Position numbers and translations under genes: made by a program. A DNA stretch of 36,682 bases, taken from a virus (taxonomy: Duplodnaviria; Heunggongvirae; Uroviricota; Caudoviricetes). The DNA is taken from the IMG/VR virus record IMGVR_UViG_2609459792_000013. One strand, 5' to 3'. The notes under the pieces are model-generated. The model did not search any database, was not told where the DNA came from, and saw only the letters and a program-made list of their open reading frames with translations. Positions 1 through 33,907 of this stretch are shown here, piece by piece. Each line of letters starts with the position of its first letter. Position 1 is the first letter of the stretch.

Positions 1-1053
1 TTACGGGGTAATGCCAACCGCTGCCGCCACTTTGTCGCCACTTGGCAGCGTTGCCAGAGGATTGAAACGGAGCGCCGTTTCCAGATGATCCGGTGCCAGA
101 TGTGCGTAACGCATAGTCATTTTTATATCGTGGTGTCCGAGAATTTTTTGTAAGGCCAGAATGTTTCCACCCGACATCATGAAGTGCGCCGCAAACGTAT
201 GGCGCAGAACGTGTGTGAGTTGACCGCGAGGGAGCACGATAGACGTTTTTTCCATCACGGATAAAAATTGAAAATAGCAGTCTGTGAAGAAATTGAACCC
301 ATCAAGCGCCATGATCTCTTCGTAAAGCTCTTTACTGATAGGGATGCTTCTGTTTTTCTTCCCCTTCGTTCTTACAAAGGTAATTCGGTATTTGGTCACC
401 TGTGAACGAGTAAGATTTACGGCTTCTCGCCAGCGTGCGCCTGTGCTTAAGCATATCTTAACTACCAGTGCCAGAATTGGGTCCTGACGTTTGCAATCAG
501 CCAGTAATTCAACAATCTGCTCATGGGTAAGCCATGCCATCTCTTTTTCTGCGATGGTGAATTTTCGCATGTTCTCCAGTGGGTTCGGATACGACCATTC
601 GCCCAGGCGGGATAGTTCGCTAAAAACACTACTTAGATAGCTTTGCTCCAGGTTAATGGTGACCGGGCTTGCTCCTTTCTTCCATTTCTCGCTGAAGTAG
701 ATCTCACCTGTCAGGCGTTTATCTCGATAGTGGGCAAACATTTTAGAGGTTAGATCAGTTGCAAGGGGATTGCCCAGAGCGTCAACCATCAGCAGCAATT
801 TGTCATAGACATGCTGCCCAGCTGTCAGTGATTTACCATGTAGTTTGAACCATAGCTCAACCACGTCTTTCAGTGTTCGACGATCCACTGATTCTCCCAG
901 CCAGGGCTTTGCTTCGGTTTCTTCCATCGTATGGCGCTCAAAAGCCAGAGCTTCGCCTTTGGTGGCGAATTGTTTACGCACACGACGCCCACTACGTCCG
1001 GCGGGGTAACATTCGCAAAGCCATTTTCCTGTGGTGAGTTTTCGTACTGCCAT
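1..1053 (-). CDS. int: Tyrosine-type site-specific integrase (P2 Int-like)
   Basis: Track ORF 1..1131; start trimmed to ATG at 1053 (MAVRKLTTGKW..., GGAGGG RBS 8 nt upstream), which aligns with my recollection of the P2 Int N-terminus. C-terminal HxxR and RYAHLAP tyrosine motif. Confidence 0.9.
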   Translation of the reverse strand: MAVRKLTTGKWLCECYPAGRSGRRVRKQFATKGEALAFERHTMEETEAKPWLGESVDRRTLKDVVELWFKLHGKSLTAGQHVYDKLLLMVDALGNPLATDLTSKMFAHYRDKRLTGEIYFSEKWKKGASPVTINLEQSYLSSVFSELSRLGEWSYPNPLENMRKFTIAEKEMAWLTHEQIVELLADCKRQDPILALVVKICLSTGARWREAVNLTRSQVTKYRITFVRTKGKKNRSIPISKELYEEIMALDGFNFFTDCYFQFLSVMEKTSIVLPRGQLTHVLRHTFAAHFMMSGGNILALQKILGHHDIKMTMRYAHLAPDHLETALRFNPLATLPSGDKVAAAVGITP

Positions 1054-1239
1054 AAAAAATGCCCTCCAATAGAGAGCATTTTTACTGTATATATAAACAG
1101 TGTCAATGTATGAAATCCTGCGACCATACATCTCACTGAAGCCATAATGAAGTTGGCTATTTTTTGCTATGTGAGTATGTGACTTTTGCGGTTAGCCTGC
1201 GGCTCATTGTTATATTAGGCGCAGATATAAAAGCAAAAT

Positions 1240-1431
1240 TTATCGCGAGTTTTTAGTACAGATTTTTTTTGATTTACTAATAGTTCCATCATTGCAAACG
1301 AACTTTCCATCGGAGGTACAGTGAGAGACACCTCCCTTTTTCCCAGAACAAGGATAATTTTTAGCATAGGTAGTTAGTGGGTTTAATAACAAAGAGCATG
1401 ATAAAACCACAAAAAATACCTTACCAAGCAT
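1240..1431 (-). CDS. Small secreted Cys-rich protein (63 aa) inserted between cI and int; candidate lysogenic-conversion moron
   Basis: N-terminal signal-peptide-like segment [23 protein letters not shown], then a Lys/Cys-rich mature part with 4 Cys. GGGAGG RBS 7 nt upstream of the ATG, directly after the cI stop; region is AT-rich. Confidence 0.6.
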
Positions 1432-1446
1432 AGTTTCCTCCCGGTA

Positions 1447-2022
1447 TTACCTAACGTACTTAATTGTTAAACTTATAATTTTCCCAATTATTTCAACATC
1501 TTCTATCTTGCACTCGAAGGCTCTGTTTCCACCTTCAACGAAGATTCTTCCACCGGGTAAACGAGTAATGTCGCGGATTGTTATTTCGCCATCAATACTT
1601 ATTACCCATTTACCGTCACGTATATCATCAAATTCTTTATCACAAATAAATTCAGAATTGTTATCTGTGATGACAAAAGGTTTTTTAAACGTAGAGGGTA
1701 GAAATCCCTTATCAAAAATATAAAAACCGTCTTCACGCAAGGCACCATCAGATAATACATATTTAGCAACTTCCATAGTATTTGTATTACCTGAAGTTTG
1801 CTTTGAACCATGTCCGGTTGTGAGCCAATTAAGCGAGGTGCCCGTTTCAAGGGCGCACTGGATTACCCATTCTGCTGGGAATGAGTCACGCATGTAGCGT
1901 GTGGCGAGTGTACTTTTAGAGATTCCTAAATGATCGCACAACGCCTGTCGAGTTTTGAATCCATAAGCTTCTACCATGCGCTCTATAGCGCCTCGTCCGC
2001 CTTTCTCCAAATTCATGGTCAC
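1447..2022 (-). CDS. cI: Immunity repressor, phage 186 CI-like
   Basis: 191 aa, the size of 186 CI rather than 99-aa P2 C. N-terminal HTH-like region (EAYGF...CALETG...WLTTG) recalled as 186 CI-like. Divergent from the apl/cII operon. Confidence 0.75.
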   Translation of the reverse strand: MTMNLEKGGRGAIERMVEAYGFKTRQALCDHLGISKSTLATRYMRDSFPAEWVIQCALETGTSLNWLTTGHGSKQTSGNTNTMEVAKYVLSDGALREDGFYIFDKGFLPSTFKKPFVITDNNSEFICDKEFDDIRDGKWVISIDGEITIRDITRLPGGRIFVEGGNRAFECKIEDVEIIGKIISLTIKYVR

Positions 2023-2040
2023 TCCAAGTGAACTTTTATC

Positions 2041-2069
2041 TTGACGATTTCACTGTGCGATCGTATGTT
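2041..2069 (+). promoter_or_regulatory. Candidate early lytic promoter (pR-like)
   Basis: TTGACG (2041-2046), 17-bp spacer, TATGTT (2064-2069), about 75 bp upstream of the apl-like ATG. Nearby imperfect repeats GCGATCGTAT / ACGATCCGTAT could be operator half-sites. Confidence 0.3.
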
Positions 2070-2141
2070 TATGGTGTTCACAAAATACAAACGATCCGTA
2101 TTCGTCCTGATTAATCATCATTAAACGAGGAATGTTGCATC

Positions 2142-2363
2142 ATGAGACCTAACATTTCAATCACTCTTACCACGCCTCATGTGACTATTGAACGCTATAG
2201 CGAGCTGACAGGGCTGTCCATCGATACCATCAATGACATGTTGGCTGACGGACGCCTTATCCGTCACCGTCTGCGCAAAGATAAAAAACGTGAAAAAGTG
2301 ATGATCAACATAGCAGCCATGACCGTTGATGCGCTTTCAGAATGCAATCTAAACCTTAATTAG
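2142..2363 (+). CDS. Apl/Cox-like excisionase-regulator (73 aa)
   Basis: Small basic ORF that is first in the rightward early operon, divergent from cI; called by position and size as in P2 cox / 186 apl. Confidence 0.6.
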
Positions 2364-2395
2364 TTCGATTCTGAAATACATCAGAGGCATTGACC

Positions 2396-2905
2396 ATGTT
2401 TGATTACCAAGTTTCCAAACATCCACATTTTGATGAAGCCTGTCGTGCATTCGCATTGCGCCACAACCTAGTGCAACTGGCAGAACGTGCAGGCATGAAT
2501 GTGCAGATTCTGCGGAACAAGCTGAACCCAGCTCAACCTCATTTATTAACCGCACCAGAAATCTGGTTGCTTACCGATCTGACTGAAGATTCAACGCTGG
2601 TAGATGGCTTTCTGGCACAGATTCACTGCCTGCCATGTGTACCGATTAATGAGGTGGCAAAAGAGAAACTGCCGCATTACGTCATGAGTGCAACTGCAGA
2701 GATAGGGCGTGTCGCGGCAGGTGCGGTTTCTGGTGATGTAAAAACCAGTGCAGGCCGTCGTGATGCGATCAGCAGCATTAACTCTGTTACACGACTGATG
2801 GCGCTGGCTGCTGTTTCATTGCAGGCCCGTTTACAGGCTAATCCTGCGATGGCGAGTGCAGTTGATACCGTGACTGGCCTCGGTGCTTCATTCGGTTTGC
2901 TGTGA
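2396..2905 (+). CDS. cII: CII-like lysogeny establishment regulator (186 CII family)
   Basis: ATG at 2396 gives 169 aa starting [19 protein letters not shown]..., strongly matching my recollection of 186 CII (length and motifs [25 protein letters not shown]). Track start at 2390 is a TTG. Confidence 0.8.
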
Positions 2906-2912
2906 GGTGCTT

Positions 2913-3113
2913 ATGCTGACGAAAGAACCATCATTTGCATCGCTGCTGGTAAAACAAAGCCCGGCAATGCACTACGGTCACGGCTGGATCATGGGTGAGG
3001 ATGGTAAACGCTGGCATCCGTGCCGTTCACAAGATGAATTGCTGGCAGAACTATCTACGAAAAAACGGGGGAACAAATGGCTATTGAAGGCGCTGCGGCG
3101 ACTGTTCCATTAA
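2913..3113 (+). CDS. Hypothetical early protein (66 aa)
   Basis: ATG at 2913 with GAGGTG RBS; sits where 186 carries the small early gene fil. Function not determinable from sequence. Confidence 0.45.
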   Translation: MLTKEPSFASLLVKQSPAMHYGHGWIMGEDGKRWHPCRSQDELLAELSTKKRGNKWLLKALRRLFH

Positions 3114-3418
3114 GCCCCGGTGAACGCCTGAATGGACTTAATCACATAGCGGAATTAAGGGCGAAAGTTTTTGGCCTGAATATTGAGTCAGAGCTTGAGC
3201 GGTTTATTAAAGATATGCGTGATCCACGGGATATCAATAACGAACAAAATAAACGAGCACTGGCAGCCATATTCTTTATGGCAAAAATTCCGGCTGAACG
3301 TCATAGCATCAGCATTAATGAGCTGACCACTGACGAAAAGCGGGAGTTGATTAAAGCAATGAATCATTTTCGTGCAGTGGTGAGCTTATTTCCCAGACGG
3401 CTAACCATGCCGAATTAA
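3077..3418 (+). CDS. Hypothetical early protein (113 aa)
   Basis: Track ORF in the early operon; overlaps the previous ORF in another frame; no motif recognised. Confidence 0.45.
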   Translation: MAIEGAAATVPLSPGERLNGLNHIAELRAKVFGLNIESELERFIKDMRDPRDINNEQNKRALAAIFFMAKIPAERHSISINELTTDEKRELIKAMNHFRAVVSLFPRRLTMPN

Positions 3419-3485
3419 CCAACCAATGAAATTAATGGCGTAAACCCGCCGGGCATCCCTTTATCTAAATTCAGGAGAATTGATT

Positions 3486-3719
3486 ATGCGTAATATTGAA
3501 ACCCTCTCGACCAAAACCGGACCGGATGACGCAGGGCTTAATATTTTACTGACAGAGGCTCGTCTGGAAGAACGCCGGGCAAGGGCTGAAGCAATGGCAG
3601 CTCGCCTTGATAGCCTGGCGTGTCATATCACATCCCGCCAGCTAACCCACGTCGAAGCGGCAGAACTGCTTCGTGTGACTGCTGAAGCAATCCAGAACGA
3701 AGCGCAGGAGATCCACTAA
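3486..3719 (+). CDS. Hypothetical early protein (77 aa)
   Basis: ATG at 3486 with AGGAG RBS 8 nt upstream; its stop overlaps the next start (TAATG). Confidence 0.5.
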   Translation: MRNIETLSTKTGPDDAGLNILLTEARLEERRARAEAMAARLDSLACHITSRQLTHVEAAELLRVTAEAIQNEAQEIH

Positions 3720-3946
3720 TGGCTGATGCAATGGATCTCGTACAGCAGCGCGTTGAAGAAGAACGCCAACGCCATATCCGTGCTGCCCGTGCCAAAACGC
3801 CGGGCGTGTCCCGCGTGCTTTGCATTGAGTGTGAAGCGCCAATTCCGCCAGCACGCCGCCGTGCCATTCCGGGTGTGCAGCTTTGCATTACCTGTCAGGA
3901 AATCGCAGAGCTGAAAGGCAAACATTACAACGGAGGTGCTGTATGA
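3719..3946 (+). CDS. TraR/DksA-family C4 zinc-finger protein (75 aa)
   Basis: CIEC...x17...CITC four-Cys motif typical of phage TraR/DksA-like proteins; stop overlaps the Dam start (ATGA). Confidence 0.7.
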   Translation: MADAMDLVQQRVEEERQRHIRAARAKTPGVSRVLCIECEAPIPPARRRAIPGVQLCITCQEIAELKGKHYNGGAV

Positions 3947-4800
3947 GCACCATCCTGAAATGGGCGGGAAATAAAACTGCCATAATGTCCGAACTGAAAA
4001 AACATCTTCCTGCTGGCCCGCGACTGGTTGAACCTTTCGCGGGTTCCTGTGCTGTGATGATGGAGACGGATTATCCCAGCTATCTGGTTGCGGATATTAA
4101 TCCTGATTTAATCAACCTCTATAAAAAGGTTGCCGCTGATTGTGAATCGTTTATATCTCGCGCCAGAGTTTTATTTGAGATCGCAAACAGGGAGGTGGCT
4201 TATTACAACATAAGGCAGGAGTTTAATTACTCAACTGAAATTACTGATTTCATGAAAGCGGTATATTTCCTGTATCTCAATCGTCACGGTTACCGTGGTT
4301 TATGTCGCTATAACAAGAGCGGGCATTTCAACATTCCCTACGGTAATTATAAAAATCCGTATTTCCCTGAAAAAGAAATTCGCGCATTTGCAGAAAAGGC
4401 CCAGCGAGCAACGTTTATCTGCGCCAGCTTTGATGAAACGCTGGCGATGTTGAAGGCGGGGGATGTGGTGTATTGCGATCCGCCGTATGACGGTACGTTT
4501 TCCGGCTATCACACTGACGGCTTCACTGAAGATGACCAGTATCACCTGGCATCTGTTCTTGAACATCGGTCATCAGAAGGACATCCGGTCATTGTTTCTA
4601 ACAGTGACACATCCCTGATCCGTTCGCTGTATCGCAATTTTACTCACCACTACATCAAGGCAAAACGCAGCATCGGTGTGGCAGCTGGCGAGGGTAAATC
4701 AGCAACAGAAATCATTGCTGTTTCCGGGCCGCGCTGCTGGGTGGGATTTGATTATTCGCGTGGCGTGGATAGTTCTGCCGTGTACGGAGTACGTGCATGA
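3943..4800 (+). CDS. dam: DNA adenine methyltransferase (Dam-like, N6-adenine; probably GATC)
   Basis: ATG at 3943 ([11 protein letters not shown]). Motif [10 protein letters not shown] and motif IV DPPY; long collinear similarity to E. coli Dam as I recall it ([32 protein letters not shown]). Confidence 0.85.
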
Positions 4801-7211
4801 GTCATGCCGATATGAACAACTGCTGCGGCTTTAACGAAGCTGCCGCATCGTTCTCATGGAACAGCCCGAAAAAGGCCATTAACCCTTATCTGGACCCGGT
4901 GGAAGTTGCGCCGGTTTCTACGCTTTCAAACCTGATCACTCTGTATGCTGCCGATAACGAGCAGGAACAGCTGCGCCGTGAGGCGCTGAGTGATCAGGTC
5001 TGGGAGCGTTATTTCTTTAATGAATCCCGTGATCCTGTCCAGCGCGAAATGGAACAGGATAAGCTCATTAGTCGGGCAAAGCTGGCGCATGAGCAGCAGC
5101 GTTTTAATCCGGATATGGTCATTCTGGCGGACGTCAACGCCCAGCCTTCCCATATCAGCAAGCCGCTGATGCAACGTATTGAATACTTCAGCAGCCTGGG
5201 CAGGCCAAAGGCTTATTCCCGCTATTTACGTGAGACGATTAAGCCATGTTTGGAACGACTGGAGCATGTACGCGACAGTCAGCTATCTGCATCTTTTCGC
5301 TTTATGGCAAGCCATGAAGGGCTGGACGGCCTGCTGATCCTGCCTGAAATGAGTCAGGATCAGGTGAAACGCCTGTCCACCTTGGTAGCTGCGCATATGA
5401 GTATGTGCCTTGATGCCGCTTGTGGCGATTTGTATGCCACCGATGACGTTAAGCCAGAAGAAATCCGCAATACATGGGAAAGGGTGGCAGCGGAAACCCT
5501 GCGTCTGGATGTCATCCCGCCTGCGTTTGAGCAACTCCGTCGGAAAAGAAACCGCCGTAAACCCGTGCCCTATGAACTCATTCCGGGTTCGCTGGCGCGT
5601 ATGTTGTGCGCCGACTGGTGGTATCGGAAATTATGGAAGATGCGTTGCGAATGGCGGGAAGAGCAGTTGCGTGCAGTCTGCCTTGTCAGCAAAAAAGCAT
5701 CTCCTTATGTCAGCTATGAAGCCGTGATGCATAAACGTGAGCAGCGCCGTAAGTCGCTGGAGTTTTTCCGTTCTCATGAACTGGTGAACGAAGACGGCGA
5801 CACGCTGGACATGGAGGATGTGGTAAACGCCAGCAGCAGCAACCCAGCGCATCGCCGCAATGAGATGATGGCCTGTGTTAAAGGTCTGGAGCTTATCGCG
5901 GAAATGCGCGGTGACTGCGCCGTTTTCTACACCATCACCTGTCCGTCACGTTTCCATTCCACGCTAAACAACGGCAGGCCCAACCCAACCTGGACAAATG
6001 CGACGGTAAGACAAAGCAGTGATTATCTGGTCGGCATGTTTGCTGCATTTCGTAAGGCGATGCACAAAGCCGGATTGCGGTGGTATGGCGTGCGGGTGGC
6101 TGAGCCGCATCATGACGGTACAGTTCACTGGCACCTGTTGTGTTTTATGCGCAAAAAAGACCGCCGCACCATCACTGCATTACTGCGTAAGTTTGCCATC
6201 CGTGAAGACCGCGAGGAGCTGGGCAATAACACTGGGCCGCGCTTTAAGTCTGAGTTGATTAACCCGCGCAAAGGTACGCCAACAAGCTACATCGCGAAAT
6301 ACATCAGTAAGAACATTGACGGGCGTGGTCTGGCTGGCGAGATCAGCAAGGAAACGGGGAAATCCCTGCGTGATAATGCTGAATACGTTAATGCCTGGGC
6401 GTCTCTGCATCGTGTTCAGCAATTCCGCTTCTTTGGCATTCCGGGGCGTCAGGCTTACCGTGAACTGCGATTGCTGGCTGGTCAGGCGGCAAGGCAACAG
6501 GGGGACAAAAAAGCAGGTGCGCCGGTACTGGATAACCCGCGCCTTGATGCCATTCTGGCTGCTGCTGATGCTGGTTGTTTTGCCACCTACATCATGAAGC
6601 AGGGTGGCGTACTGGTTCCCCGCAAATATCACCTCATCAGAACTGCTTATGAAATCAACGAAGAGCCGACCGCCTATGGCGATCACGGCATTCGTATTTA
6701 TGGCATCTGGTCACCTATTGCAGAGGGCAAGATCTGCACTCATGCCGTGAAGTGGAAAATGGTTCGTAAGGCCGTTGACGTTCAGGAGGCGGCAGCCGAC
6801 CAGGGCGCTTGCGCCCCTTGGACTCGTGGCAATAACTGTCCCCTTGCTGAAAATTTGTACCAACAAGGGAAAGACAAATCAGCTGATGGAGATACCAGAA
6901 CGGATATCACCCGCATGGATGACAAGGAGTTGCACGATTACCTGCACAGTATGAGCAAAAAAGAGCGCCGGGAACTGGCAGCAAGGTTACGCCTGGTGAA
7001 ACCGAAACGGCGTAAAGACTACAAACAACGAATTACAGACCATCAGCGACTGCAGCTCGTGTATGAACTGAAGTCCAGGGGATTTGATGGCAGCGAGAAA
7101 GAGGTCGATTTACTGCTTCGCGGCGGCAGTATTCCGTCAGGAGCAGGCCTGCGTATCTTCTATCGGAACCAGCGTTTGCAGGAAGATGATAAGTGGCGAA
7201 ACCTGTATTAA
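4797..7211 (+). CDS. A: Rolling-circle replication initiator (P2 gpA-like)
   Basis: 804 aa; HUH-type motif [10 protein letters not shown] and Y-x3-Y active-site pair (YIAKY), as in P2 A. Start overlaps the Dam stop. Confidence 0.85.
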
Positions 7212-7303
7212 TTACGCGGGTTAACAATTCGTGCTCTTAATAATACCAGGCATATCAGGCTGATGAGCGTAAAAAAACGTTTTACATCAGTAAGATTATT
7301 ATA

Positions 7304-7323
7304 TACTGTAAATATAAACAGTG
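7304..7323 (+). promoter_or_regulatory. LexA (SOS) box overlapping a candidate promoter
   Basis: TACTGTAAATATAAACAGTG is a perfect CTGT-N8-ACAG with AT-rich spacer (CTGT 7306-7309, ACAG 7318-7321). -35 TTTACA (7281-7286) and, 17 bp later, -10 TACTGT (7304-7309) overlap it; AGGAGG RBS and ATG at 7364 follow. Confidence 0.65.
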
Positions 7324-7363
7324 GTTATGTATACAGTATTGCTTTGGTGTCATAGGAGGAAAG

Positions 7364-7552
7364 ATGCAGGACTATTTTTTGGAGTCTTTGAAGCTCCAGC
7401 GCATTGATTTTTTTCTTAAGCTTGTAGCGGCTAGTGAGTGTAGTGATGAAGAGAAGGGGCTGGCTCTGCAGTGGGTTTCAGAGCTGACTGATGAGTTGAT
7501 GGCGAAAATTCGTGCCCATGAATATAACCGTGTAATGGATCTTCCCGGTTAG
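7364..7552 (+). CDS. Small acidic protein (62 aa) under putative SOS control; Tum-like antirepressor position, function unknown
   Basis: Strong AGGAGG RBS; first gene after the LexA-box promoter; sits where 186 carries its LexA-controlled tum operon (A to cos). Confidence 0.6.
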   Translation: MQDYFLESLKLQRIDFFLKLVAASECSDEEKGLALQWVSELTDELMAKIRAHEYNRVMDLPG

Positions 7553-7563
7553 CAGCAGGGGCG

Positions 7564-7598
7564 TTGCTGGCGTGAGAACTAGATTCTCGCGTCAGCAA
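7564..7598 (+). other. 15-bp-stem hairpin between the 62-aa and 387-aa ORFs
   Basis: Arm 7564-7578 TTGCTGGCGTGAGAA pairs with arm 7584-7598 TTCTCGCGTCAGCAA (13 Watson-Crick + 2 G-U pairs), 5-nt loop; no following U-tract. Confidence 0.4.
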
Positions 7599-7722
7599 GG
7601 TCAACTAAGGATTGAAACAGAAAGCCCTTGAAAACAGTAGCAAGTTGCCTATTATCTACGCTGTATTTAATCGATGTCATTGGCTGTAATACCTTAAGTG
7701 ATATTGAAAGGCGGTGTGGGGA

Positions 7723-8883
7723 ATGGATCTGGCTAAAGTTGAAGAACGCGTCCGAAGAGTCATAGGGACAATGGAGTCTGCCGAGCTTGATGAATATTTT
7801 TGGGGTAAGCGCTCGGGTTTGGGAGACTCATTACCTCCGTATTATCTCGTTTATTTTCTTTTGGTAGATTTACTGAAATTTAAAAATCGTGGGGTTGATG
7901 AGAAGATTTCTTTTTCTATCCCAGTCCGGATTGATGGGACTGTCGTAATTATAGAACATCGTAAACTTGGTTTAGATATATTTATCAAGAGTGATGATGA
8001 TATAGAGCAAGCTAAAACTGTTTTGAGACATATTTGCGCAGGGGTTAAAGCTGCTACGAAATTTTTTGACTCGCTTGCAGACAATGCAGCAAAGACTTCA
8101 AATCTAAATGTTAATAACAATGCTAATTCTCTTTATGATAGGTTTTGCTATTTTTTAGAGCTATATAAACAGAAGCTTGATGAAGTTGCTGCTGGCCAAG
8201 AGTCTAAACTGGAAGTTGATAGTGAGTTTAAGTCTGATAATTTTTTCAGCCTGTTACAATCCACTTTTGAACAATCAAATAAGATAATTGAACTCCGAAG
8301 AGAGGCTATGTGGTTAGCAACGTCTGCAATTGAGTCATTTTTCAATTGGACCGAGCATGTTTTCATTCTTATTGCAATCTTGAAGGGTGAGATAAAAAAT
8401 GGGAATGATGTGGCTGATAAAGTTGGGAAAGAATGGGGGGAGAAATTCAAATTAGCCATTGATATTAACTCTTCCAGTCTAAAATCATTCTATGAACGTT
8501 TACTTATACTCAGAAAACAGGTGCGTAATTTTGTAGCCCATGGCGCCTTCGGTAAGGATGGGCAAGCATTGGAATTTCACTCAAGTGTAGGGGCTGTGCC
8601 ACTATTGCTGCCTCATCGAGAAAATAAAGAACGTTTCAAGTTTGGAAATGGTGTACATTTTTTGGCACCTGAAGCAATGCAATTAATTAACGATTTTCTT
8701 GAAAATTTGTGGCAGGGAGAACTGTCCCCAGCAAAAATTTATATTGAATCTGGATGTCCTTTAATACTATCTTACGTAACTAATGGAACCTATGCGGAGG
8801 CGATGAAATCAGAAAGGAATATGGACTTATTGGTTAATTACTTAACTCGTGAGATGGATAATGCCGCAAACATGGATTGGTAA
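7723..8883 (+). CDS. Cargo protein (387 aa), unknown function; candidate HEPN-like nuclease (R-N-x3-H motif)
   Basis: Long AT-rich ORF (ATG 7723; track start 7714 is a GTG) in the P2 tin/old slot. Motif LRKQVRNFVAHG matches the HEPN Rx4-6H signature; no Walker A motif seen. Confidence 0.75.
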   Translation: MDLAKVEERVRRVIGTMESAELDEYFWGKRSGLGDSLPPYYLVYFLLVDLLKFKNRGVDEKISFSIPVRIDGTVVIIEHRKLGLDIFIKSDDDIEQAKTVLRHICAGVKAATKFFDSLADNAAKTSNLNVNNNANSLYDRFCYFLELYKQKLDEVAAGQESKLEVDSEFKSDNFFSLLQSTFEQSNKIIELRREAMWLATSAIESFFNWTEHVFILIAILKGEIKNGNDVADKVGKEWGEKFKLAIDINSSSLKSFYERLLILRKQVRNFVAHGAFGKDGQALEFHSSVGAVPLLLPHRENKERFKFGNGVHFLAPEAMQLINDFLENLWQGELSPAKIYIESGCPLILSYVTNGTYAEAMKSERNMDLLVNYLTREMDNAANMDW

Positions 8884-9208: not shown

Positions 9209-9499
9209 ATGAAAACGATATATAGCTATGATTACCAATACTTGCCTAAAGGGTCCACAAGACCAATTGATGACGGAGATATAGTAGGCTGTTCGTCAGA
9301 AGAAAATCCTTTTCTTCTACTTCCCAATGTAGGTGATTTTGTCTCTATATGTAATGACAATAGTCGGTCTTCGTTTAGTGGTATTGTTAAAACTAGATAT
9401 TTCACTTATACGAGAATAAGTGAGGAGTGCGTACAATGTTCAATTAATATTGTAGTTGCAGAATCTGATGTAGATTGGGGTACTCTTATTAAAGAATAA
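9209..9499 (+). CDS. Cargo protein (96 aa), cytoplasmic, unknown function
   Basis: AT-rich ORF between cos and Q; candidate promoter upstream (TTGACT at 9140-9145); no recognisable motif. Confidence 0.6.
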   Translation: MKTIYSYDYQYLPKGSTRPIDDGDIVGCSSEENPFLLLPNVGDFVSICNDNSRSSFSGIVKTRYFTYTRISEECVQCSINIVVAESDVDWGTLIKE

Positions 9500-9554: not shown

Positions 9555-10241
9555 ATGGTTAAATTTAATAATAACTTTGATTTTCCATTGGTAACAATAC
9601 TGACGGTGTTGCTATTTATATTGGCATATTTTTTTAAACTTGGTGAGGCCGTTTATTTTGGTTATCCAGCAATACTTATATCATTAGATTTAACGAGTGT
9701 TGCGAATATTTCTTTAAAGCTTTTTTTCTATTTTGGTAGTATTGTTATAGGTGTTTTTAATTTTATTTTGAATGATGGTGCGATTAAACTTAATAAAATT
9801 AAGTATGTTCTTTGGATTTTTATTGCCATAACAATATTTTCAGTTTTTTTAAGTTTTAAGAGGGGGGAGAAAGACTTAGTTAACTATCTTAATGGTGGTC
9901 TTTTTGGTATTTGTTCATGGTTGGTGGTAATGTCGTTGTTCAAAACATTTGAACGAAGTGGTGATTTGATTAATATAGATTTCGTATATGCCATATTAAC
10001 GGTTTTCTTTATGTCAGTTACTAGTTTTCTTGGAGGGATTAATTATCATAATCAGTTTGCATCTGTTCTATGGAAAACCTTGGATGGAAAAATAGTAGTT
10101 GGAGAATATAACGGCAGTTTTGTTTTAAAGAAATGCGTAGATGGCAAAGGGGTTTTTAGCTTTAGAGAGGTAAATGGTAGCGAATTTGTTGAGGTTGTAA
10201 ATTATGTGGAAGGGAAGTTTAATCCAAGGTGCAATAGATAA
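9555..10241 (+). CDS. Cargo membrane protein (228 aa), about five TM helices plus a roughly 60-aa C-terminal soluble domain
   Basis: Hydrophobic stretches LVTILTVLLFILAYFF, ISLKLFFYFGSIVIGVFNFIL, YVLWIFIAITIFSVFLSF, LFGICSWLVVMSLF, FVYAILTVFFMSVTSFLGGI; very AT-rich; ends 25 bp before the convergent Q stop. Confidence 0.7.
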   Translation: MVKFNNNFDFPLVTILTVLLFILAYFFKLGEAVYFGYPAILISLDLTSVANISLKLFFYFGSIVIGVFNFILNDGAIKLNKIKYVLWIFIAITIFSVFLSFKRGEKDLVNYLNGGLFGICSWLVVMSLFKTFERSGDLINIDFVYAILTVFFMSVTSFLGGINYHNQFASVLWKTLDGKIVVGEYNGSFVLKKCVDGKGVFSFREVNGSEFVEVVNYVEGKFNPRCNR

Positions 10242-10266: not shown

Positions 10267-11298
10267 TTATTCAAGTTTGTAGGCGTCAAAACTGATAACA
10301 GTTTTACCTAACCATATATTCAATTCTTCAAATCTTTTTTGCAATGATGTTAGTTCATTTCTTACAAAAACATTACTCGCCTTCTCCACATCCCCAAACC
10401 CTCCAACATTATTAGGCATAATCCCCATCATTTGCGGCGGCACGCGGTGCGCAGCCATCATGTCATCCCGGCTCACGTTCTTGATATTCAAAAATTCATC
10501 CTTTGCCGCGACTTCTGACAGAGGAATAATCTGAAGCCCGTCCTTTTTGCCGTTAGGCGAGTACATAAACAGGTTGCGGAAGTTGCCTGGACCTTTGGCG
10601 CTTTTCATCGCGTTGCGGAGGTTGTTCACATCTTCCTGGTTCTGCGCGGCGTCGGTCATATACATGATGAAGCCAGCATGACTGCCGTTAATGTAATACT
10701 TTCGACGGAACAGCGTGGCGGACTCATTGAGCAGGGCGGACGGAATGGCAGAAAGATAGCCGGGCAAGCCGTAGATCTCCTGGTTAATGTCCGGTTCCAT
10801 CAGATGAAAAATGCTGCCTTTCGTGAACTGATATGGCTGGGTTGTCATACCGTATTGCACAAACCAGTAGGTATCCAAGTCTAACCCGCGTCGGGTGTAT
10901 TTTGCCAGCGCAGGCTCAAGGGCGATAACTTCACCGAAGCGGTTCGTGCGTTTCTCCAAGTAGGCGTTACCAAAAACCAAATAGTCCTGCACAAAACGCG
11001 AAAAAGCCTGCTGGCTGAGCAGCGGGTGAGGGATGTAGGTGCTGGTCAAAATATTGCATTTCACCGCAATCGGTGAGCTGTGATGCACGGCGGCGCGGAA
11101 GGTTCGTGCCAGCCCGTCAAAGCTGACGGGCGGCTCATACCAGCGATCCATCTGTACGCATTCCACATAGTCCAGCAGTTCGCGGCGGTCCAGAACAGGA
11201 ACGGGATCACCGAAGCTGAATGCTTCGGCTGAAGTCTGGCTTTTATGCTGGTTCTGGTTCGTCGACGCAGCGCGGTTCTTCTTACTCTTTCCCATCAA
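10267..11298 (-). CDS. Q: Portal protein (P2 gpQ-like)
   Basis: 343 aa, recalled P2 Q similarity; operon with P on the minus strand, start overlapping the P stop. Confidence 0.85.
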   Translation of the reverse strand: MMGKSKKNRAASTNQNQHKSQTSAEAFSFGDPVPVLDRRELLDYVECVQMDRWYEPPVSFDGLARTFRAAVHHSSPIAVKCNILTSTYIPHPLLSQQAFSRFVQDYLVFGNAYLEKRTNRFGEVIALEPALAKYTRRGLDLDTYWFVQYGMTTQPYQFTKGSIFHLMEPDINQEIYGLPGYLSAIPSALLNESATLFRRKYYINGSHAGFIMYMTDAAQNQEDVNNLRNAMKSAKGPGNFRNLFMYSPNGKKDGLQIIPLSEVAAKDEFLNIKNVSRDDMMAAHRVPPQMMGIMPNNVGGFGDVEKASNVFVRNELTSLQKRFEELNIWLGKTVISFDAYKLE

Positions 11299-16747: not shown

Positions 16748-17243
16748 ACGCTGCCTTGTCGGGGCCGTGCTGGCTATTGCTGCCACGCTGCCGGGTTTTC
16801 AGCAGCTTCACACCTCCGTGGAGGGGCTGAAACTGATTGCAGATTACGAAGGCTGTCGTCTGCAGCCGTATCAGTGCAGCGCGGGCGTCTGGACCGACGG
16901 CATTGGTAACACGTCAGGCGTCATTCCCGGCAAAACCATTACGGAACGACAGGCAGCTGAAGGGCTGATCTCCAACGTGCTACGAGTGGAGCGGGCGATG
17001 GAAAGGTGTGTGAAGCAACAGCCGCCGCAGAAGGTGTATGACGCTACGGTGTCGTTTGCCTTCAACGTGGGGACGGGCAATGCCTGCAGTTCCACACTGG
17101 TGAAATTACTCAATCAGCGGCGCTGGGCGGATGCGTGCCGACAGTTGCCGCGCTGGGTTTATGTAAAAGGTGTTTTTAATCAGGGGCTGGATAACCGCCG
17201 TGCGCGGGAGATGGCCTGGTGCCTTAAAGGAGCTGGACTATGA
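16728..17243 (+). CDS. Endolysin, lysozyme (GH24-like) with N-terminal SAR signal-anchor
   Basis: Weakly hydrophobic Gly/Ala-rich N-terminus (LVGAVLAIAATLPG), then catalytic-region motif EGLKLIADYEGCRLQPYQCSAGVWTDGIGNT typical of phage 21-type lysozymes. Confidence 0.85.
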   Translation: MNPSIVKRCLVGAVLAIAATLPGFQQLHTSVEGLKLIADYEGCRLQPYQCSAGVWTDGIGNTSGVIPGKTITERQAAEGLISNVLRVERAMERCVKQQPPQKVYDATVSFAFNVGTGNACSSTLVKLLNQRRWADACRQLPRWVYVKGVFNQGLDNRRAREMAWCLKGAGL

Positions 17244-17668
17244 CGCGTGCTCTGGCAGTAGTGGTGGCGCTGGCACTCGTTGCGCTGGGCTGGCAGTCGA
17301 GGCGGCTTAACAGCGCCAGCCACACCATCGAAACGCAGCGCGCGGCGCTGAAAAGTAAAGCGCAGGAACTAACGAAGAAAAATAGCCAGCTGATCGGTCT
17401 GTCCATTCTGGCTGAAACCAACAACCGGGAGCAGGCGCGGCTCTATGCCGACGCAGAACAGACCAGCGCACTGCTGAGACAACGACAACACCGGATTGAG
17501 GAACTGAAACGTGAGAACGAGGATTTACGCCGCTGGGCTGATACTCCTTTGCCTGCTGACATTATCCGGCTGCGGGAACGCCCCACGCTCACCGGAGGTG
17601 CAGCTTACCGTCAGTGGTTGTCCGCGAGTGACGCCGTGTCGGCTGGAGCAGGCAGCGCCGCGCACTAA
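17240..17668 (+). CDS. i-spanin (Rz/LysB-like)
   Basis: N-terminal TM anchor plus a charged coiled-coil periplasmic domain; directly after the endolysin. Confidence 0.75.
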   Translation: MTRALAVVVALALVALGWQSRRLNSASHTIETQRAALKSKAQELTKKNSQLIGLSILAETNNREQARLYADAEQTSALLRQRQHRIEELKRENEDLRRWADTPLPADIIRLRERPTLTGGAAYRQWLSASDAVSAGAGSAAH

Positions 17669-18195: not shown

Positions 18196-18631
18196 ACTGC
18201 AGAAGGTGGACGACTGGCTGAGTGCTTTGCTGGCGAATCTGGAGCCAGCCGCAAGAAGCCGCATGATGCGCCAGCTGGCGCAGGAACTGCGCCGGACACA
18301 GCAGCAGAACATCAGGATGCAGCGCAATCCAGATGGCAGCAGTTATGAACCGCGCAGGGCAACAGCACGCAGCAAAAAGGGGCACATCAAACGTCAGATG
18401 TTTACAAAGCTGCGCACCTCTAAATACCTTCAAACTACCGCCAGCGCCGATTCTGCCAGCGTGCAGTTTGAAGGTAAGGTGCAGCGCATTGCACGCGTTC
18501 ACCATTACGGCCTGCGTGATCGCGTCAGTCGTCATAGTTTTAAAGTGAAATATGCGCAACGGCGTCTTCTAGGCGTTAATAAAGACATAGAAATTTGGGT
18601 TCGAAACACACTGAAGCACTGGCTTGTTTAG
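18188..18631 (+). CDS. S: Tail completion protein S (gpS-like)
   Basis: 147 aa, GTG start overlapping the R stop; position as in P2. Confidence 0.8.
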   Translation: MAELQKVDDWLSALLANLEPAARSRMMRQLAQELRRTQQQNIRMQRNPDGSSYEPRRATARSKKGHIKRQMFTKLRTSKYLQTTASADSASVQFEGKVQRIARVHHYGLRDRVSRHSFKVKYAQRRLLGVNKDIEIWVRNTLKHWLV

Positions 18632-18645
18632 TGCTTCAGTGTGTT
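18605..18645. other. Perfect 16-bp inverted repeat (9-nt loop) at the convergent S / cargo-gene junction
   Basis: AACACACTGAAGCACT (18605-18620) and AGTGCTTCAGTGTGTT (18630-18645) are exact reverse complements; spans the S stop codon; no clear U-tract on either strand. Confidence 0.4.
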
Positions 18646-18656
18646 AAAACAGAAGA

Positions 18657-20408
18657 CTATTGGTTGAATATGAAGCTGATAATATTTTCAGGAGTGAGCT
18701 CTATGTTTTTTTTATTAAGTTTTTGAATGTACATTTTATATTTCATTTCAACGTTTCGGAAGCCTTGCGCAACAGAAAGTATTTCTACAGGATGAGATGA
18801 AAGTTTTATTAAGGAGTTAATGACTGTATCTAGGTAGATGTGAGCATGTTCAACTAAAACATTTGTTTTTGATGGGGTTTTTCCAGTGTGAACTATCAAG
18901 TTTCTAGTTCTATATATTCTCCTAATTTGCCAGTTGATTCTTTCTGCATGATTTTTAAGTGCCTGATACATAGTATCAGTTGAGGAAATTAAATTGCTAA
19001 TATATTCAAATCTCTCTTTCAATAACGGAAATTGTGATAGTTCTATCTTAAACTGATTGATGCTAGGGGCATGTTCTTGCGAAGCAACAAGAATTACAAA
19101 TGATTTGGCTGCATCGCTATCTCCAATTAGTCTTAGAAGTGACATGGTTCGAGGATGATTCCATCGTTGTAAGTCTTTTATAAGATTCCTTACTAGGTCT
19201 TCAATATAATTCAGGTTTAAAAATGGTGTTAATGAATTAACGATATGTTCTATCGTGGATTGTTCTTCTTTTTTTGATTCGTCGGGGATGAGTGATTCAA
19301 TAGCAATCCATAAATTTAAAAGCTGATTTTCTACAGCATTTGTCTGTAGTGCCATTGAATGTAATTGTACACTTCTTATGAATTTATTGAAAGAATCCTT
19401 GCGCATTCTGAAATTATTCATGAATTGTTCGAGTCTTCTGCTTGCGTGTTCCTGAACCAGATCCTTGCAGCGGTGCATTGGGTTTATGCTGCTTCTTATA
19501 TTGATTTTTTCACCATTTTCACTAACTACAATGTTCTCTGCAGACCATGATGCTTCTTGCTTATGATGATAGAGAGAAAGCAAAGTTGATGCGAGCTTTA
19601 AGTTTCTTTCAGCTACCCTTCTAGCCGTGAATGGATCAAGTGCTTTAACATGCTTAACTAAAATAGTTCGTTGTTCATGATTATCGAAGAAATCTGTTTC
19701 ATTAATATTTTCGGGGGTTTCAAGAACAACCTCAATTTCTAATTGTGATAAGCATGGAGTAATATAACTAAAAGATTTGTCAGCATTGAAATAAACTGAA
19801 TATTCTTGTGTCTCTGAGGGGATGTTCTCTAGGAATGTAATAATCTCTTCATTTGAACTGATCTCTCGTTCTCTTTGGAAGAAATGTTTTTTTAGACTTT
19901 CCATCAAATATTCTTGACTTAATCCTTTTGATATTAGATGGGTAATCAACAGTCTTGTAAACTTTCGAATTTTATTTGGGTTGTATTCTGAAGTTATTGT
20001 AGAGCAAAGTTCACTGATGAGTTTGCTTTCATAATTACCAACATTAAGTTGAACTCTCAGTAATTCAAGAGTTATTTTTAGATTTTTATTTCCTAACTGA
20101 TTGTTTTGGAGTTGATCTAAAAATGAACCTAAAGGGTTTTTTAGAAGACTGATTGCGATGTCATCATTCTTAATATTTTTAGTTAATTCGTCAATGACGT
20201 GGGATATATGTGCGGGGCTTATGTTGCCTTTTTCTATATCATCGATTGTTGATATTGCTTCTATACATAAACTTGGAGTGTTCATTATAGAAGGTTTATA
20301 TGTACTATGGGTGTAATCAAAGAGAAGTTCCTCCATTAACTCGGTGAAATAAATAAGCGCAGTGCATTGTTCAATATGATTCCAGTTGTGTAGTCTTCTA
20401 AATTTCAT
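18657..20408 (-). CDS. Cargo protein (583 aa) antisense to the late operon in the S-V moron slot; candidate HEPN-like abortive-infection protein
   Basis: Very AT-rich ORF; ATG at 20408 (MKFRRLHNWNH...). The track TTG start at 20528 would overlap gpV and is rejected. C-terminal motif IRRIYRTRNLIVHTGK matches R-N-x3-H-x-G; no Walker A motif. Confidence 0.8.
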   Translation of the reverse strand: MKFRRLHNWNHIEQCTALIYFTELMEELLFDYTHSTYKPSIMNTPSLCIEAISTIDDIEKGNISPAHISHVIDELTKNIKNDDIAISLLKNPLGSFLDQLQNNQLGNKNLKITLELLRVQLNVGNYESKLISELCSTITSEYNPNKIRKFTRLLITHLISKGLSQEYLMESLKKHFFQREREISSNEEIITFLENIPSETQEYSVYFNADKSFSYITPCLSQLEIEVVLETPENINETDFFDNHEQRTILVKHVKALDPFTARRVAERNLKLASTLLSLYHHKQEASWSAENIVVSENGEKINIRSSINPMHRCKDLVQEHASRRLEQFMNNFRMRKDSFNKFIRSVQLHSMALQTNAVENQLLNLWIAIESLIPDESKKEEQSTIEHIVNSLTPFLNLNYIEDLVRNLIKDLQRWNHPRTMSLLRLIGDSDAAKSFVILVASQEHAPSINQFKIELSQFPLLKERFEYISNLISSTDTMYQALKNHAERINWQIRRIYRTRNLIVHTGKTPSKTNVLVEHAHIYLDTVINSLIKLSSHPVEILSVAQGFRNVEMKYKMYIQKLNKKNIELTPENIISFIFNQ

Positions 20409-20452
20409 ATTAATACCTTGTTTTGTGAAGCTTGAATTTACCTTTAGCGCAT

Positions 20453-20470
20453 TGTTTGTTGCTTCATACA
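20453..20470. promoter_or_regulatory. TGT-N12-ACA dyad between the cargo gene and V (late-promoter activator site candidate)
   Basis: TGTTTGTTGCTTCATACA, with flanking extended symmetry TGTTTG...CAAACA. Centre is 55.5 bp from the V ATG (20517) and 53.5 bp from the cargo ATG (20408). Confidence 0.45.
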
Positions 20471-20516
20471 AACATGGTTTGTTTGTGATCTCAAGTGTTT
20501 GATTAAGAATTTGAGA

Positions 20517-22944: not shown

Positions 22945-24380
22945 GCACAAAATTTTATACCCTGCTGACGGATATTGGCGCGGCGAAACTTGCCAGCGCC
23001 GCCGCGCTCGGTGTGCCTTTAAAAATTACCCATATGGCGGTCGGCGATGGCGGCGGAACATTGCCAACGCCGGACGCAAAGCAGACAGCATTAGTAAATG
23101 AGAAACGCCGGGCTGCGCTGAATATGCTCTATATCGACCCGCAGAACAGCAGCCAGATTATTGCTGAACAGGTGATCCCTGAAAACGAGGGCGGTTGGTG
23201 GATACGTGAAGTGGGCCTGTTTGATGAGTCCGGGGCATTGATTGCCGTGGGCAACTGCCCGGAAAGCTATAAGCCGCAACTGGCTGAAGGCAGCGGGCGT
23301 ACCCAGACCGTGCGCATGGTGCTGATTACCAGCAGCACGGACAATATCACCCTGAAAATCGACCCTGCCGTAGTGCTGGCAACCCGCAAGTATGTGGATG
23401 ACAAGGTACTGGAGCTGAAGGTGTACGTAGATGACCTGATGGCAAAACATCTTGCTGCACAGGACCCACATTCACAGTACGCGCCAAAAGCCAGCCCGAC
23501 ATTTACCGGAACCCCCAAAGCGCCAACGCCAGCGGCGGGGAATAATACCACGCAGGTTGCGACCACTGCGTTTGTACAGGCGGCACTGACGGCCCTTATT
23601 AATGGTGCGCCAGCCACGCTGGACACGCTGAAAGAAATAGCCGCAGCCATTAACAATGATCCGAATTTCAGTACCACCATTAACAATGCGCTGGCACTAA
23701 AAGCACCGTTGTCGAGTCCGGCACTCACCGGAACGCCAACAGCCCCCACGGCGGCGCAGTCGGTCAACAATACACAGATTGCCACTACGGCTTTTGTGAA
23801 ATCGGCGATTGCAGGAATGGTGGGTTCTGCACCTGCTGCACTGGATACACTGAACGAACTGGCGGCGGCACTGGGGAATGATCCGAACTTTGCCACGACA
23901 ATGCTTAATGCGCTGGCAGGTAAACAACCGCTGGACAATACGCTTACCAATTTGAGTGGAAAGGATGTGGCTGGTCTTCTCGCATACCTTGGTTTGGGAG
24001 AAGCGGCAACGAGGAACGTCGGAACGGATACCGGGCAAGTACCAGATATGAGTAGTTTTACAACGGGGCACTCTGGAGCAGCAGACTGGCCGATTCCTAA
24101 ATCTGGATGGAGTAAGGGGCCGGAAGGGGTAATTACACAATGGGGTATTTTCGGTTTCCCCGTTGGACAGACAGGGACGAATGTTGTTTTCCCGCTACCT
24201 TTCCCCGCGCGGGTCGAATCAATTACACTGACAATGGCAGATATCCAGGAGTCTCTGCTTTCTCCAGCAACCATGCCTGCTTATGGAGTTAACTCAACTG
24301 GTACTTCAAGAACGGGTTTTACAGCCCGTATGTCAGGCGCCGGTGGGTTTAATCTTTGCTATATAGCGAAAGGGAGATAA
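22941..24380 (+). CDS. H: Tail fibre protein (gpH-like); C-terminal about 130 aa lie inside the invertible segment
   Basis: 479 aa with Ala/Thr-rich repeats (TAFVQAALTAL, TAFVKSAIAGM) typical of tail fibres. The hix-like crossover site falls at codons 350-354 (LGLGE). Confidence 0.8.
   Translation: MSTKFYTLLTDIGAAKLASAAALGVPLKITHMAVGDGGGTLPTPDAKQTALVNEKRRAALNMLYIDPQNSSQIIAEQVIPENEGGWWIREVGLFDESGALIAVGNCPESYKPQLAEGSGRTQTVRMVLITSSTDNITLKIDPAVVLATRKYVDDKVLELKVYVDDLMAKHLAAQDPHSQYAPKASPTFTGTPKAPTPAAGNNTTQVATTAFVQAALTALINGAPATLDTLKEIAAAINNDPNFSTTINNALALKAPLSSPALTGTPTAPTAAQSVNNTQIATTAFVKSAIAGMVGSAPAALDTLNELAAALGNDPNFATTMLNALAGKQPLDNTLTNLSGKDVAGLLAYLGLGEAATRNVGTDTGQVPDMSSFTTGHSGAADWPIPKSGWSKGPEGVITQWGIFGFPVGQTGTNVVFPLPFPARVESITLTMADIQESLLSPATMPAYGVNSTGTSRTGFTARMSGAGGFNLCYIAKGR
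23977..24002. other. Left recombination site of the invertible segment (hix/gix-like, inside H)
   Basis: TTCTCGCATACC TT GGTTTGGGAGAA. Its reverse complement shares 14 consecutive nt (TTCTCCCAAACCAA) with the right site; 15-bp identical core is 23989-24003. Confidence 0.6.
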
Positions 24381-24384
24381 CAGA

Positions 24385-24828
24385 ATGAATAAAGTTAAAA
24401 GTGTTTACAGCCCGTCCGAAAATGCAATCTACAACGCAGCGCTATATGAAAGTTATATCAAGGAGGGGACATGGCCGCAGGATGGTATTGAAATCAGCGA
24501 TGAGGATGCTGTCAGATTTAATGGGGGAAATAAGCCAACAGGAAAAATGCTGGGAATGGTTTCAGGGACCCTTGCATGGGTTGATGAGCCGCCGCTTTCA
24601 CCAGAACAGAAAATATCAGATGCAGAAAACATGAAAGCCACATTTCGTGCAAAAGCTGACAGTGAAATATCCTGGCGTCAGGATGCTGTTGATGCTGGTA
24701 TCGCAACTGATGAAGAAACTTCAACTCTCACCCAATGGAAGAAATACCGTGTGCTGCTGATGCGTGTTGATACATCAACAGCCCCCGATATTGAATGGCC
24801 TACACCTCCGGCAGTTCAGGCCAGATGA
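24385..24828 (+). CDS. G: Tail fibre assembly chaperone (gpG/Tfa-like)
   Basis: 147 aa directly after H; C-terminal DTSTAPDIEWP motif is shared with the minus-strand Tfa'. Confidence 0.75.
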   Translation: MNKVKSVYSPSENAIYNAALYESYIKEGTWPQDGIEISDEDAVRFNGGNKPTGKMLGMVSGTLAWVDEPPLSPEQKISDAENMKATFRAKADSEISWRQDAVDAGIATDEETSTLTQWKKYRVLLMRVDTSTAPDIEWPTPPAVQAR

Positions 24829-25402
24829 CATCCGGCGCGGTGCTGGTATCTGTTGCCGTCACCGCGTCAATGTAATCCAGCACGGCGTTAAGGCGGGTGG
24901 TTTCTGCCTGCGTCAGCCTCCGCCCGGCCTGTAATTTCAGCTGAATCAGACTGATGGAAGCCATTGCAGCATCAATCAGTGACTGGCGCTGTGCTTCTGC
25001 CGCGTCTACTGCGGCGCAATGCTGTGCCTCAGTATCGGTCACCCATTTCTCACCATCCCATTTATCGTATGGCGTTAACGGGGCGATAGTGGTTGTATTT
25101 TCGGGGTAATCACCCGGAGCTGTGATTTCTTTGGCGTCTCCCGTTTCGGTGTTATAGACGATTTCACCGCGATGGTCTGGCACATATTCCCATGAATTTA
25201 AATCCACAGAGCGACAAATTGCATAACCAGCCTTGTATATGCCAGGTGCCTCCAGACAGGAAAATGCCGGAATACCGACACCCACAGCAAGATATTCAGT
25301 TGATGTGGAAATATATTCCCGTATTTCGCCATCATAGTTATAGACGGTAATATTCCCCGCCTTTGTAGCAATAAACTCGCTATTTAATACAGCGTTATCC
25401 AT
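24800..25402 (-). CDS. Alternative tail fibre assembly chaperone (Tfa'), for the inverted orientation
   Basis: 200 aa; C-terminus DTSTAPDVIWPELP; its 3' end overlaps the plus-strand tfa 3' end by 29 bp (convergent). Confidence 0.75.
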   Translation of the reverse strand: MDNAVLNSEFIATKAGNITVYNYDGEIREYISTSTEYLAVGVGIPAFSCLEAPGIYKAGYAICRSVDLNSWEYVPDHRGEIVYNTETGDAKEITAPGDYPENTTTIAPLTPYDKWDGEKWVTDTEAQHCAAVDAAEAQRQSLIDAAMASISLIQLKLQAGRRLTQAETTRLNAVLDYIDAVTATDTSTAPDVIWPELPEV

Positions 25403-25893
25403 TATGCAGCCCTCACGATATAGTTAAATGCAATATTCCGTGGACGGGTTTCATTTATCCCATATGCTGTTGTTCTCTGATTCCCGACAAAATATCCATT
25501 TGGATTAGAAGATACAGAATAATCATCAAAATCAAGTGGGCTATCAGCACCCGGCGTCAGGCTTGCAATATATCCTCTTCCCATAACTTCTGATGCTGGT
25601 ATTTCTTTTGTACGATAATCACTAACTCTGAAGAGCTGCCCTTGGTGGGTGTGTGATTCCACTCCTCCATTCTGAAGACTTAGCAAGGCACGTACAGCAT
25701 CAATACCACGCCCGTCATCCCAGCCACGAATAAATTCACCGCGTAAATCAGGCAATTTATTTGTCGGGTAAGCCTTTGCCAGTTCCGGGTATTCTTCAGC
25801 AGAAAAAGCTGCACCGTTGCATTTCAGCCAGCCTGTTGGCGGTGTGGCTGAAGGCCATGGAACAGGCACACCAACAGGTAATGCAGAGCCTTC
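25402..25893 (-). CDS. Alternative tail fibre C-terminal (receptor-binding) module H', start-less; expressed only after inversion fuses it to the constant gpH N-terminus
   Basis: Open frame runs from the right hix-like site (codons GLGE in the same phase and with the same nucleotides as gpH 351-354) to the stop at 25402. The track ORF's first 17 codons lie at or beyond the crossover and are not a real start. Confidence 0.6.
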   Translation of the reverse strand, partial: EGSALPVGVPVPWPSATPPTGWLKCNGAAFSAEEYPELAKAYPTNKLPDLRGEFIRGWDDGRGIDAVRALLSLQNGGVESHTHQGQLFRVSDYRTKEIPASEVMGRGYIASLTPGADSPLDFDDYSVSSNPNGYFVGNQRTTAYGINETRPRNIAFNYIVRAA

Positions 25894-25916
25894 TCCCAAA
25901 CCAACGTTTATGAAAA
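25891..25916. other. Right recombination site of the invertible segment (hix/gix-like)
   Basis: TTCTCCCAAACC AA CGTTTATGAAAA resembles the hix/gix consensus TTATCAAAAACC AA GGTTTTTGATAA; about 55 bp upstream of the invertase start. Confidence 0.6.
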
Positions 25917-25971
25917 TGCAGAGATAATGACTAACTGGCATCATCTCCGGTTTTTATTCAGGGGGATGCTC

Positions 25972-26538: not shown

Positions 26539-26585
26539 ATCAGCATAATTTTGATTATCCCTGCAAGTAGACAAATACCGTCATT

Positions 26586-33827: not shown

Positions 33828-33907
33828 CGCTGCCGCCATTTTGTCGCCATCGTTAAAAAACAGTGTTTCTAACATCATGATTTTAAACAGCTTAAATTTC
33901 AGGCAAC

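Follow-up and report, generated by a model that had tools for sequence, protein, structure and literature searches.

The DNA analysed here, a window of 36,682 nucleotides, comprises the whole of a 186/Fels-2-like (Peduoviridae) prophage, inserted at rybB/ybjL in the genome of E. coli or a closely related bacterium. Its segment from 7281 to 7338 is very likely an SOS promoter-operator, the equivalent of phage 186 p95, through which LexA-controlled TumA would inactivate the CI repressor and thereby induce the prophage (features are listed in Table 1). The switch is already known: it has been tested experimentally in the 96%-identical E. coli prophage DuoHS, and the mechanism holds nothing new. 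The additions made here are modest, namely a colicin-type double LexA box, the loss of dinI/tumB in this variant and a second, putatively LexA-controlled promoter before int.

The window is collinear with DuoHS, the prophage of E. coli HS, and occupies the same chromosomal site, as seen by pairwise BLAST. From 42 to 7540 the two are 96.4% identical; the alignment then resumes at 10335, and further stretches of the window without DuoHS homology lie at 17222-17281, 18532-20516 and 23405-26554. The right end holds the host genes ybjL and ybjM, and the presence there of the host small RNA rybB is consistent with rybB as the integration site, as in the E. coli HS prophage. Over 175 residues the repressor CI shares 32% identity with 186 CI (E = 8e-38), and its score against the Peptidase_S24 family, 16.7 bits, is under the family cut-off of 23.3. 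It is of the 186 type and, by analogy with 186, would be refractory to RecA-dependent cleavage. Beyond cI follow, in order, an Apl/Cox-like gene, CII, Dam and gpA. A 63-aa ORF parts int from the cI operon, an arrangement unlike that of 186; the N-terminal segment of its product is hydrophobic and signal-like.

Table 1 Features of the window that bear on the SOS promoter, its target genes and their surroundings.
Feature	Position	Strand	Remarks
int	starts 1053	minus	
int promoter TTGACA-17-AAAAAT	1078-1106	minus	10/12; LexA box fills the spacer
LexA box TACTGTATATATAAACAGTG	1083-1102	minus	26.5 bits, best 20-mer in the window
63-aa ORF	1240-1431	minus	between cI and int; NCBIfam PRK10040-type hypothetical protein, phrog_6000
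CI immunity repressor, 186-type	1447-2022	minus	Pfam Phage_CI_repr and Phage_CI_C
gpA (replication gene A)	4797-7211		Pfam Phage_GPA
-35 TTTACA of tumA (p95-like) SOS promoter	7281-7286	+	seen in sequence; conserved
LexA box 1 TACTGTAAATATAAACAGTG	7304-7323	+	first six bases (7304-7309) are the -10 TACTGT
LexA box 2 CAGTGGTTATGTATACAGTA	7319-7338	+	5-bp overlap with box 1, 15-bp offset
Shine-Dalgarno AGGAGG of tumA	7354-7359	+	
tumA, 62 aa	7364-7552	+	phrog_698, E = 4.7e-36
15-bp hairpin, no U-tract	7564-7598	+	11 nt past tumA stop
Promoter-like TTGAAA-16-TATTAT	7628-7655		10/12; just 5' of 386-aa gene
386-aa cargo gene (386/389 aa)	7723-8883	+	ATG at 7723
96-aa cargo ORF	9209-9499	+	phrog_12676; no Pfam, NCBIfam or PADLOC match
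228-aa cargo ORF	9555-10241	+	phrog_35408; hydrophobic, probably membrane protein; no Pfam, NCBIfam or PADLOC match
Portal gene	10267-11298	minus	follows three ORFs without family assignment 3' of tumA
rybB, host sRNA	33905-33983	minus	Rfam RF00110, 105 bits; adjoins ybjL, prophage right end

The initial annotation of this DNA had reported a CTGT-N8-ACAG SOS box, which is present as box 1, TACTGTAAATATAAACAGTG; the range it gave, 7281-7323, includes the -35 as well. Box 1 matches the consensus TACTG(TA)5CAGTA at 17 of 20 positions, with CTGT-N8-ACAG intact. For scoring, 27 E. coli LexA sites served to make a position weight matrix, in place of a curated one; the training sites themselves have a median of 20.4 bits (range 12.8-26.7). 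Box 1 scored 23.9 bits, above that median and second among all 20-mers of the window, and the third-best 20-mer, at 15.7 bits, was the overlapping box 2. The 20-nt consensus with three or fewer mismatches was found at two sites in the 36.7-kb window and at none in 100 shuffles. It could be argued that box 1 is a chance or decayed palindrome of an AT-rich intergenic region, without LexA function in the window copy, insofar as its -10 is weak and CTGT-N8-ACAG by itself is mildly over-represented (two occurrences in the window where 0.55 would be expected; two or more in 8 of 100 shuffles). Such a reading is scarcely credible, however, given that 20 bits was never reached in 500 first-order Markov surrogates of the window (maximum 18.4), that box 1 is identical in Fels-2 and DuoHS, that a box is kept in distant relatives although the flanks diverge, and that DuoHS induction needs lexA and tum (PMC12055606). 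Judged by its sequence and its retention among phages, 7304-7323 is very probably a genuine LexA (SOS) operator, and it is conserved.

The spacer between TTTACA and TACTGT is 17 nt, and 40 nt separate the end of box 1 from the tumA ATG at 7364. Box 1 starts 93 nt past the gpA stop (7211), and tumA is transcribed in the direction of gpA. TTTACA-17-TACTGT is not among the promoters listed by a generic sigma-70 scan, since TACTGT fits TATAAT at 3 of 6 positions only. The layout is nevertheless that of the annotated 186 p95, and the earlier proposal of a LexA box overlapping a promoter was right. The -10 lies within box 1, and box 2 spans the likely transcription start; LexA would presumably occupy box 2 as well. 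A role of the box for a divergent minus-strand gene was rejected, the only candidate there being a 64-aa ORF buried in gpA.

Conservation of the locus was followed in 12 aligned loci, consisting of the window and 11 phage records from at least eight Peduoviridae genera. These were Cartapus, Klebsiella phages ST11-OXA245phi3.1, ST13-OXA48phi12.1 and ST437-OXA245phi4.1, RE2010, SopEphi, Escherichia phage 500465-1, Yersinia phage MLG42, ESSI2_ev015, Cronobacter phage ESSI-2 and 186; Fels-2, PSP3 and DuoHS were added to the comparison afterwards. Every locus has a LexA box of 21-29 bits, 21-27 bits among the 12 aligned ones, located 38-96 nt 5' of the homologous ORF, and the flanks diverge. TTTACA or TTCACA is found 17-18 nt 5' of TACTGT in most of the 12 loci, including 186. 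The box 1 20-mer of the window recurs unchanged in Fels-2, DuoHS, Cartapus, RE2010, Klebsiella phage ST11-OXA245phi3.1 and Escherichia phage 500465-1. Promoter and both boxes precede the same gene in nine other sequenced phages and in DuoHS. Box 2 is seen at the same 15-bp offset in eight phage loci, Fels-2 and DuoHS; no member of the phrog_698 subgroup lacks it, and the DuoHS copy differs from that of the window at 2 of 20 positions. Four more distant relatives (186, PSP3, ESSI2_ev015 and Cronobacter phage ESSI-2) have a single box only. The promoter-tumA part of the query was matched in 1102 of 5426 complete E. coli genomes, and the assignment therefore bears on many prophage-induction predictions.

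The 62-aa ORF is named 'hypothetical' or 'levan regulatory protein' in the public records consulted, and it has no match in Pfam, NCBIfam or PADLOC. BLASTP gave no alignment between it and 186 Tum, and the homology rests on profile matches. Besides phrog_698, the ORF matches phrog_8554 (3.7e-8) and phrog_1993 (0.0025); residues 1-70 of 186 Tum match phrog_1993 (1.5e-23), phrog_8554 (3.4e-12) and phrog_698 (5.9e-6) over the same positions. One Cys and an A-L motif do not vary in the alignment. In relatives, a 77-aa DinI-family gene lies directly 3' of the ORF, and its match to the 186 Tum profile falls in the C-terminal half. Since the ORF matches the N-terminal part of Tum and the DinI-family gene its C-terminal half, the pair corresponds to the fused Tum of 186. 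The PSP3 record shows tumA ('UV induction of prophage') and tumB (DinI) as separate genes, and tum has been described as split in Fels-2 and PSP3, with the antirepressor activity in the upstream gene (PMC3121763); a literature search on tumA/tumB/PSP3 found nothing else of relevance. The window ORF is identical at 57 of 62 residues to Fels-2 STM2728, and likewise to DuoHS ECHS_RS04495. By homology, the 62-aa ORF is a backbone gene, the split-tum antirepressor 'tumA', and it can be so named in annotation.

Experimental support for this switch comes from DuoHS, in which mitomycin C-induced lysis was abolished by delta-tum and also by lexA(Ind-) (PMC12055606). The primers used for delta-tum, NHR24 and NHR28, are given in the supplementary list of that study (PMC12055606). 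When mapped on E. coli HS, they fuse the start codon of the 62-aa ORF (ATG; L020, 9620) with its stop codon (TGA, 9806-9808), and the deletion leaves the next gene, which is dinI-like, intact. Because the primers delete exactly the DuoHS 62-aa ORF, the published DuoHS tum is the orthologue of the window ORF. It is correspondingly very unlikely that the 62-aa protein has a function other than antirepression and that the LexA box merely adds a minor SOS gene without a role in induction. The absence of a Pfam, NCBIfam or PADLOC family and the uninformative names in the sources would fit such a gene. Against it stand the loss of induction upon in-frame deletion of the 57/62-identical DuoHS orthologue (PMC12055606), the profile matches that tie the ORF to the N-terminal part of 186 Tum, and the PSP3 tumA annotation together with PMC3121763, both of which support antirepressor identity. 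The initial annotation had further suggested that the site may determine whether the prophage is inducible by UV. It very probably does decide SOS inducibility; DuoHS induction needs tum and a cleavable LexA (PMC12055606).

The proposed course of induction draws its LexA- and tum-dependence and the antirepression of CI from the literature on 186, PSP3, Fels-2 and DuoHS. In an undamaged lysogen, LexA dimers on both overlapping boxes would cover the -10 and the start and silence the promoter. Upon DNA damage, RecA would be activated, LexA would cleave itself, the promoter would fire and 62-aa TumA would be made. TumA would then bind the 186-type CI and block it from its operators; with CI inactivated, the early lytic promoter would be released and the prophage induced. 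By analogy with the colicins, the double operator probably makes the switch tight and late-firing, with strong repression, late derepression and commitment only after severe damage. The prophage can be predicted to be SOS-inducible via an antirepressor and not via repressor cleavage. The window copy of tumA, with its altered C-terminal residues and no tumB, is presumed to be active, and the changed C-terminus of TumA and the missing dinI/tumB could alter or weaken induction.

One of the closest described counterparts of this promoter is that of 186, whose p95/tum is reported as a LexA-repressed antirepressor (Shearwin, Brumby and Egan 1998, as cited in PMC3121763). In the 186 record, p95 consists of a -35 TTCACA, a -10 TACTGT and the LexA site TACTGTATGTTTATACAGTA, followed by tum; the A gene ends at 28828. 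The initial annotation's analogy with 186 tum proved exact in position and layout. In both phages the SOS promoter lies just past gene A, the LexA box begins with the -10 TACTGT, the repressor is a 186-type CI, an accessory gene follows downstream in the same orientation, and the N-terminal part of Tum is homologous. The two differ in that 186 has a single box and a fused 146-aa Tum with N-terminal and DinI-like parts, whereas the window has two overlapping boxes and a stand-alone 62-aa protein, with no DinI-like part. Fels-2 (STM2728 with DinI) and DuoHS agree with the window in box 1, which is identical, and in the protein at 57 of 62 residues. In Fels-2, PSP3 and DuoHS, dinI/tumB lies directly 3' of tumA, whereas the window has other cargo and no dinI. 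Fels-2 also figures in Bunny et al. 2002, cited via PMC3121763 in connection with the lethality of a lexA null.

The double operator itself has a counterpart outside phages. The colicin E1 (cea) and cloacin operators likewise have two LexA boxes with a 5-bp overlap and a 15-bp offset, and an operator core of about 40 nt is near-identical between the window (TATACTGTAAATATAAACAGTGGTTATGTATACAGTATT) and ColE1 (TATGCTGTATATAAAACCAGTGGTTATATGTACAGTATT), cloacin being alike. The colicin double operator binds two LexA dimers and gives tight repression and delayed induction (PMC2994835). The likeness is limited to the operator: the colicin operators govern a bacteriocin gene and that of the window a phage antirepressor, and the distance to the -35 differs. 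The window double operator matches more than 1200 plasmid records, including bacteriocin plasmids of ColE1 size (about 6.6 kb) and of cloacin (9.3 kb). The regulatory logic recurs in Gifsy (GfoA/GftA) and N15 (AntC), where LexA represses a small antirepressor directed against a non-cleavable repressor (PMC3121763). These systems share the logic of the window, but the proteins are unrelated, the genes are ordered differently (in Gifsy, dinI is first) and the phage families are different.

The initial annotation had taken the 62-aa ORF for the first gene of a cargo module. In this it was mistaken, as the ORF is the conserved backbone gene tumA. Homology to DuoHS and other relatives stops only at about 7540, within the last tumA codons, and variable cargo follows from there. 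Nucleotide divergence from DuoHS already climbs from about 7500, marking a mosaic junction in the tumA 3' end, and 5 of the last 12 residues of TumA differ from the DuoHS and Fels-2 proteins. A tblastn search of the whole window for DinI/TumB-like sequence gave none (best E = 0.35). ESSI2_ev015 and Cronobacter phage ESSI-2 also have tumA without dinI, and the DinI partner is thus not universal.

Past the tumA stop lies a hairpin, the equivalent of which follows dinI/tumB in Cartapus, SopEphi, Yersinia phage MLG42 and two Klebsiella phages. Compensatory changes were found in 7 of 18 pairs across the six phages, and in the five others the hairpin precedes a conserved GGTTGAACAACGAG motif. An Rfam search at E <= 1 yielded no match in 7200-7730, RybB being the sole match in the whole window. 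A terminator variant, an RNA stabiliser and a module boundary are candidate roles for the hairpin.

The gpA-portal variable region is a known hotspot for accessory and defence genes. The 386-aa protein encoded there has no Pfam, PHROG, NCBIfam or PADLOC match. The protein has upwards of 1000 proteobacterial homologues, every one labelled hypothetical, and its AlphaFold model is confident (pLDDT 84) and features a long helical hairpin, with no informative PDB match. It is possibly the product of an uncharacterised anti-phage gene. In 10 complete E. coli genomes the junction formed by the tumA 3' end, the hairpin and the 386-aa gene recurs at 98.6-98.8% identity, and the cargo beyond it is different; the 96-aa and 228-aa ORFs are missing from the E. 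coli genomes that share this tumA/386-aa module.

The SOS promoter may possibly drive downstream cargo in addition to tumA. A stronger form of this idea, that the LexA promoter serves mainly an accessory module in which the 62-aa ORF and the 386/389-, 96- and 228-aa genes form an SOS-induced cargo operon, is doubtful, with points on either side. No canonical intrinsic terminator was predicted on the + strand between 7323 and 8883, and the hairpin lacks a U-tract; transcription from 186 p95 continues past a partial terminator into orf97, and the junction recurs in the 10 E. coli genomes. On the other hand, promoter and 62-aa ORF are backbone, kept across phages whose downstream genes are all different, with homology ending at about 7540, and the 62-aa ORF is the tum antirepressor. 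A strong conserved hairpin also stands between tumA and the 386-aa gene, which has a promoter-like site of its own. The hairpin and this separate site argue against obligatory co-transcription of tumA and cargo, and we retain the reading in which the promoter acts first of all on the antirepressor.

Besides box 2 (7319-7338), a further element beyond those of the initial annotation is the LexA box at 1083-1102, stronger than box 1, which lies with its promoter about 25 nt 5' of the int ATG (1053). The position of this box within the promoter implies that int expression would be SOS-inducible. The prophage might then be wired to the SOS response three times, through the double-operator tumA, a LexA-repressed int and read-through from tumA into the 386-aa cargo gene, a scheme that we put forward tentatively and hold to be somewhat improbable as a whole. 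If true, the loss of dinI/tumB, which placed the 386-aa gene behind tumA, would make a candidate defence gene inducible by DNA damage. A LexA-repressed int promoter is unannotated in 186, and no description of one was found for 186, for P2 or elsewhere in the literature searched, where the one paper retrieved, on Phollow, makes no mention of an int promoter. Klebsiella phage 4LV2017, E. coli phage 813R9, ESSI2_ev129 and DuoHS all retain the int box with differing spacer bases; it is absent where cI abuts int, as in Cartapus. Among 120 matches to the promoter-plus-box pattern in IMG/VR, 81 precede an int of this type.
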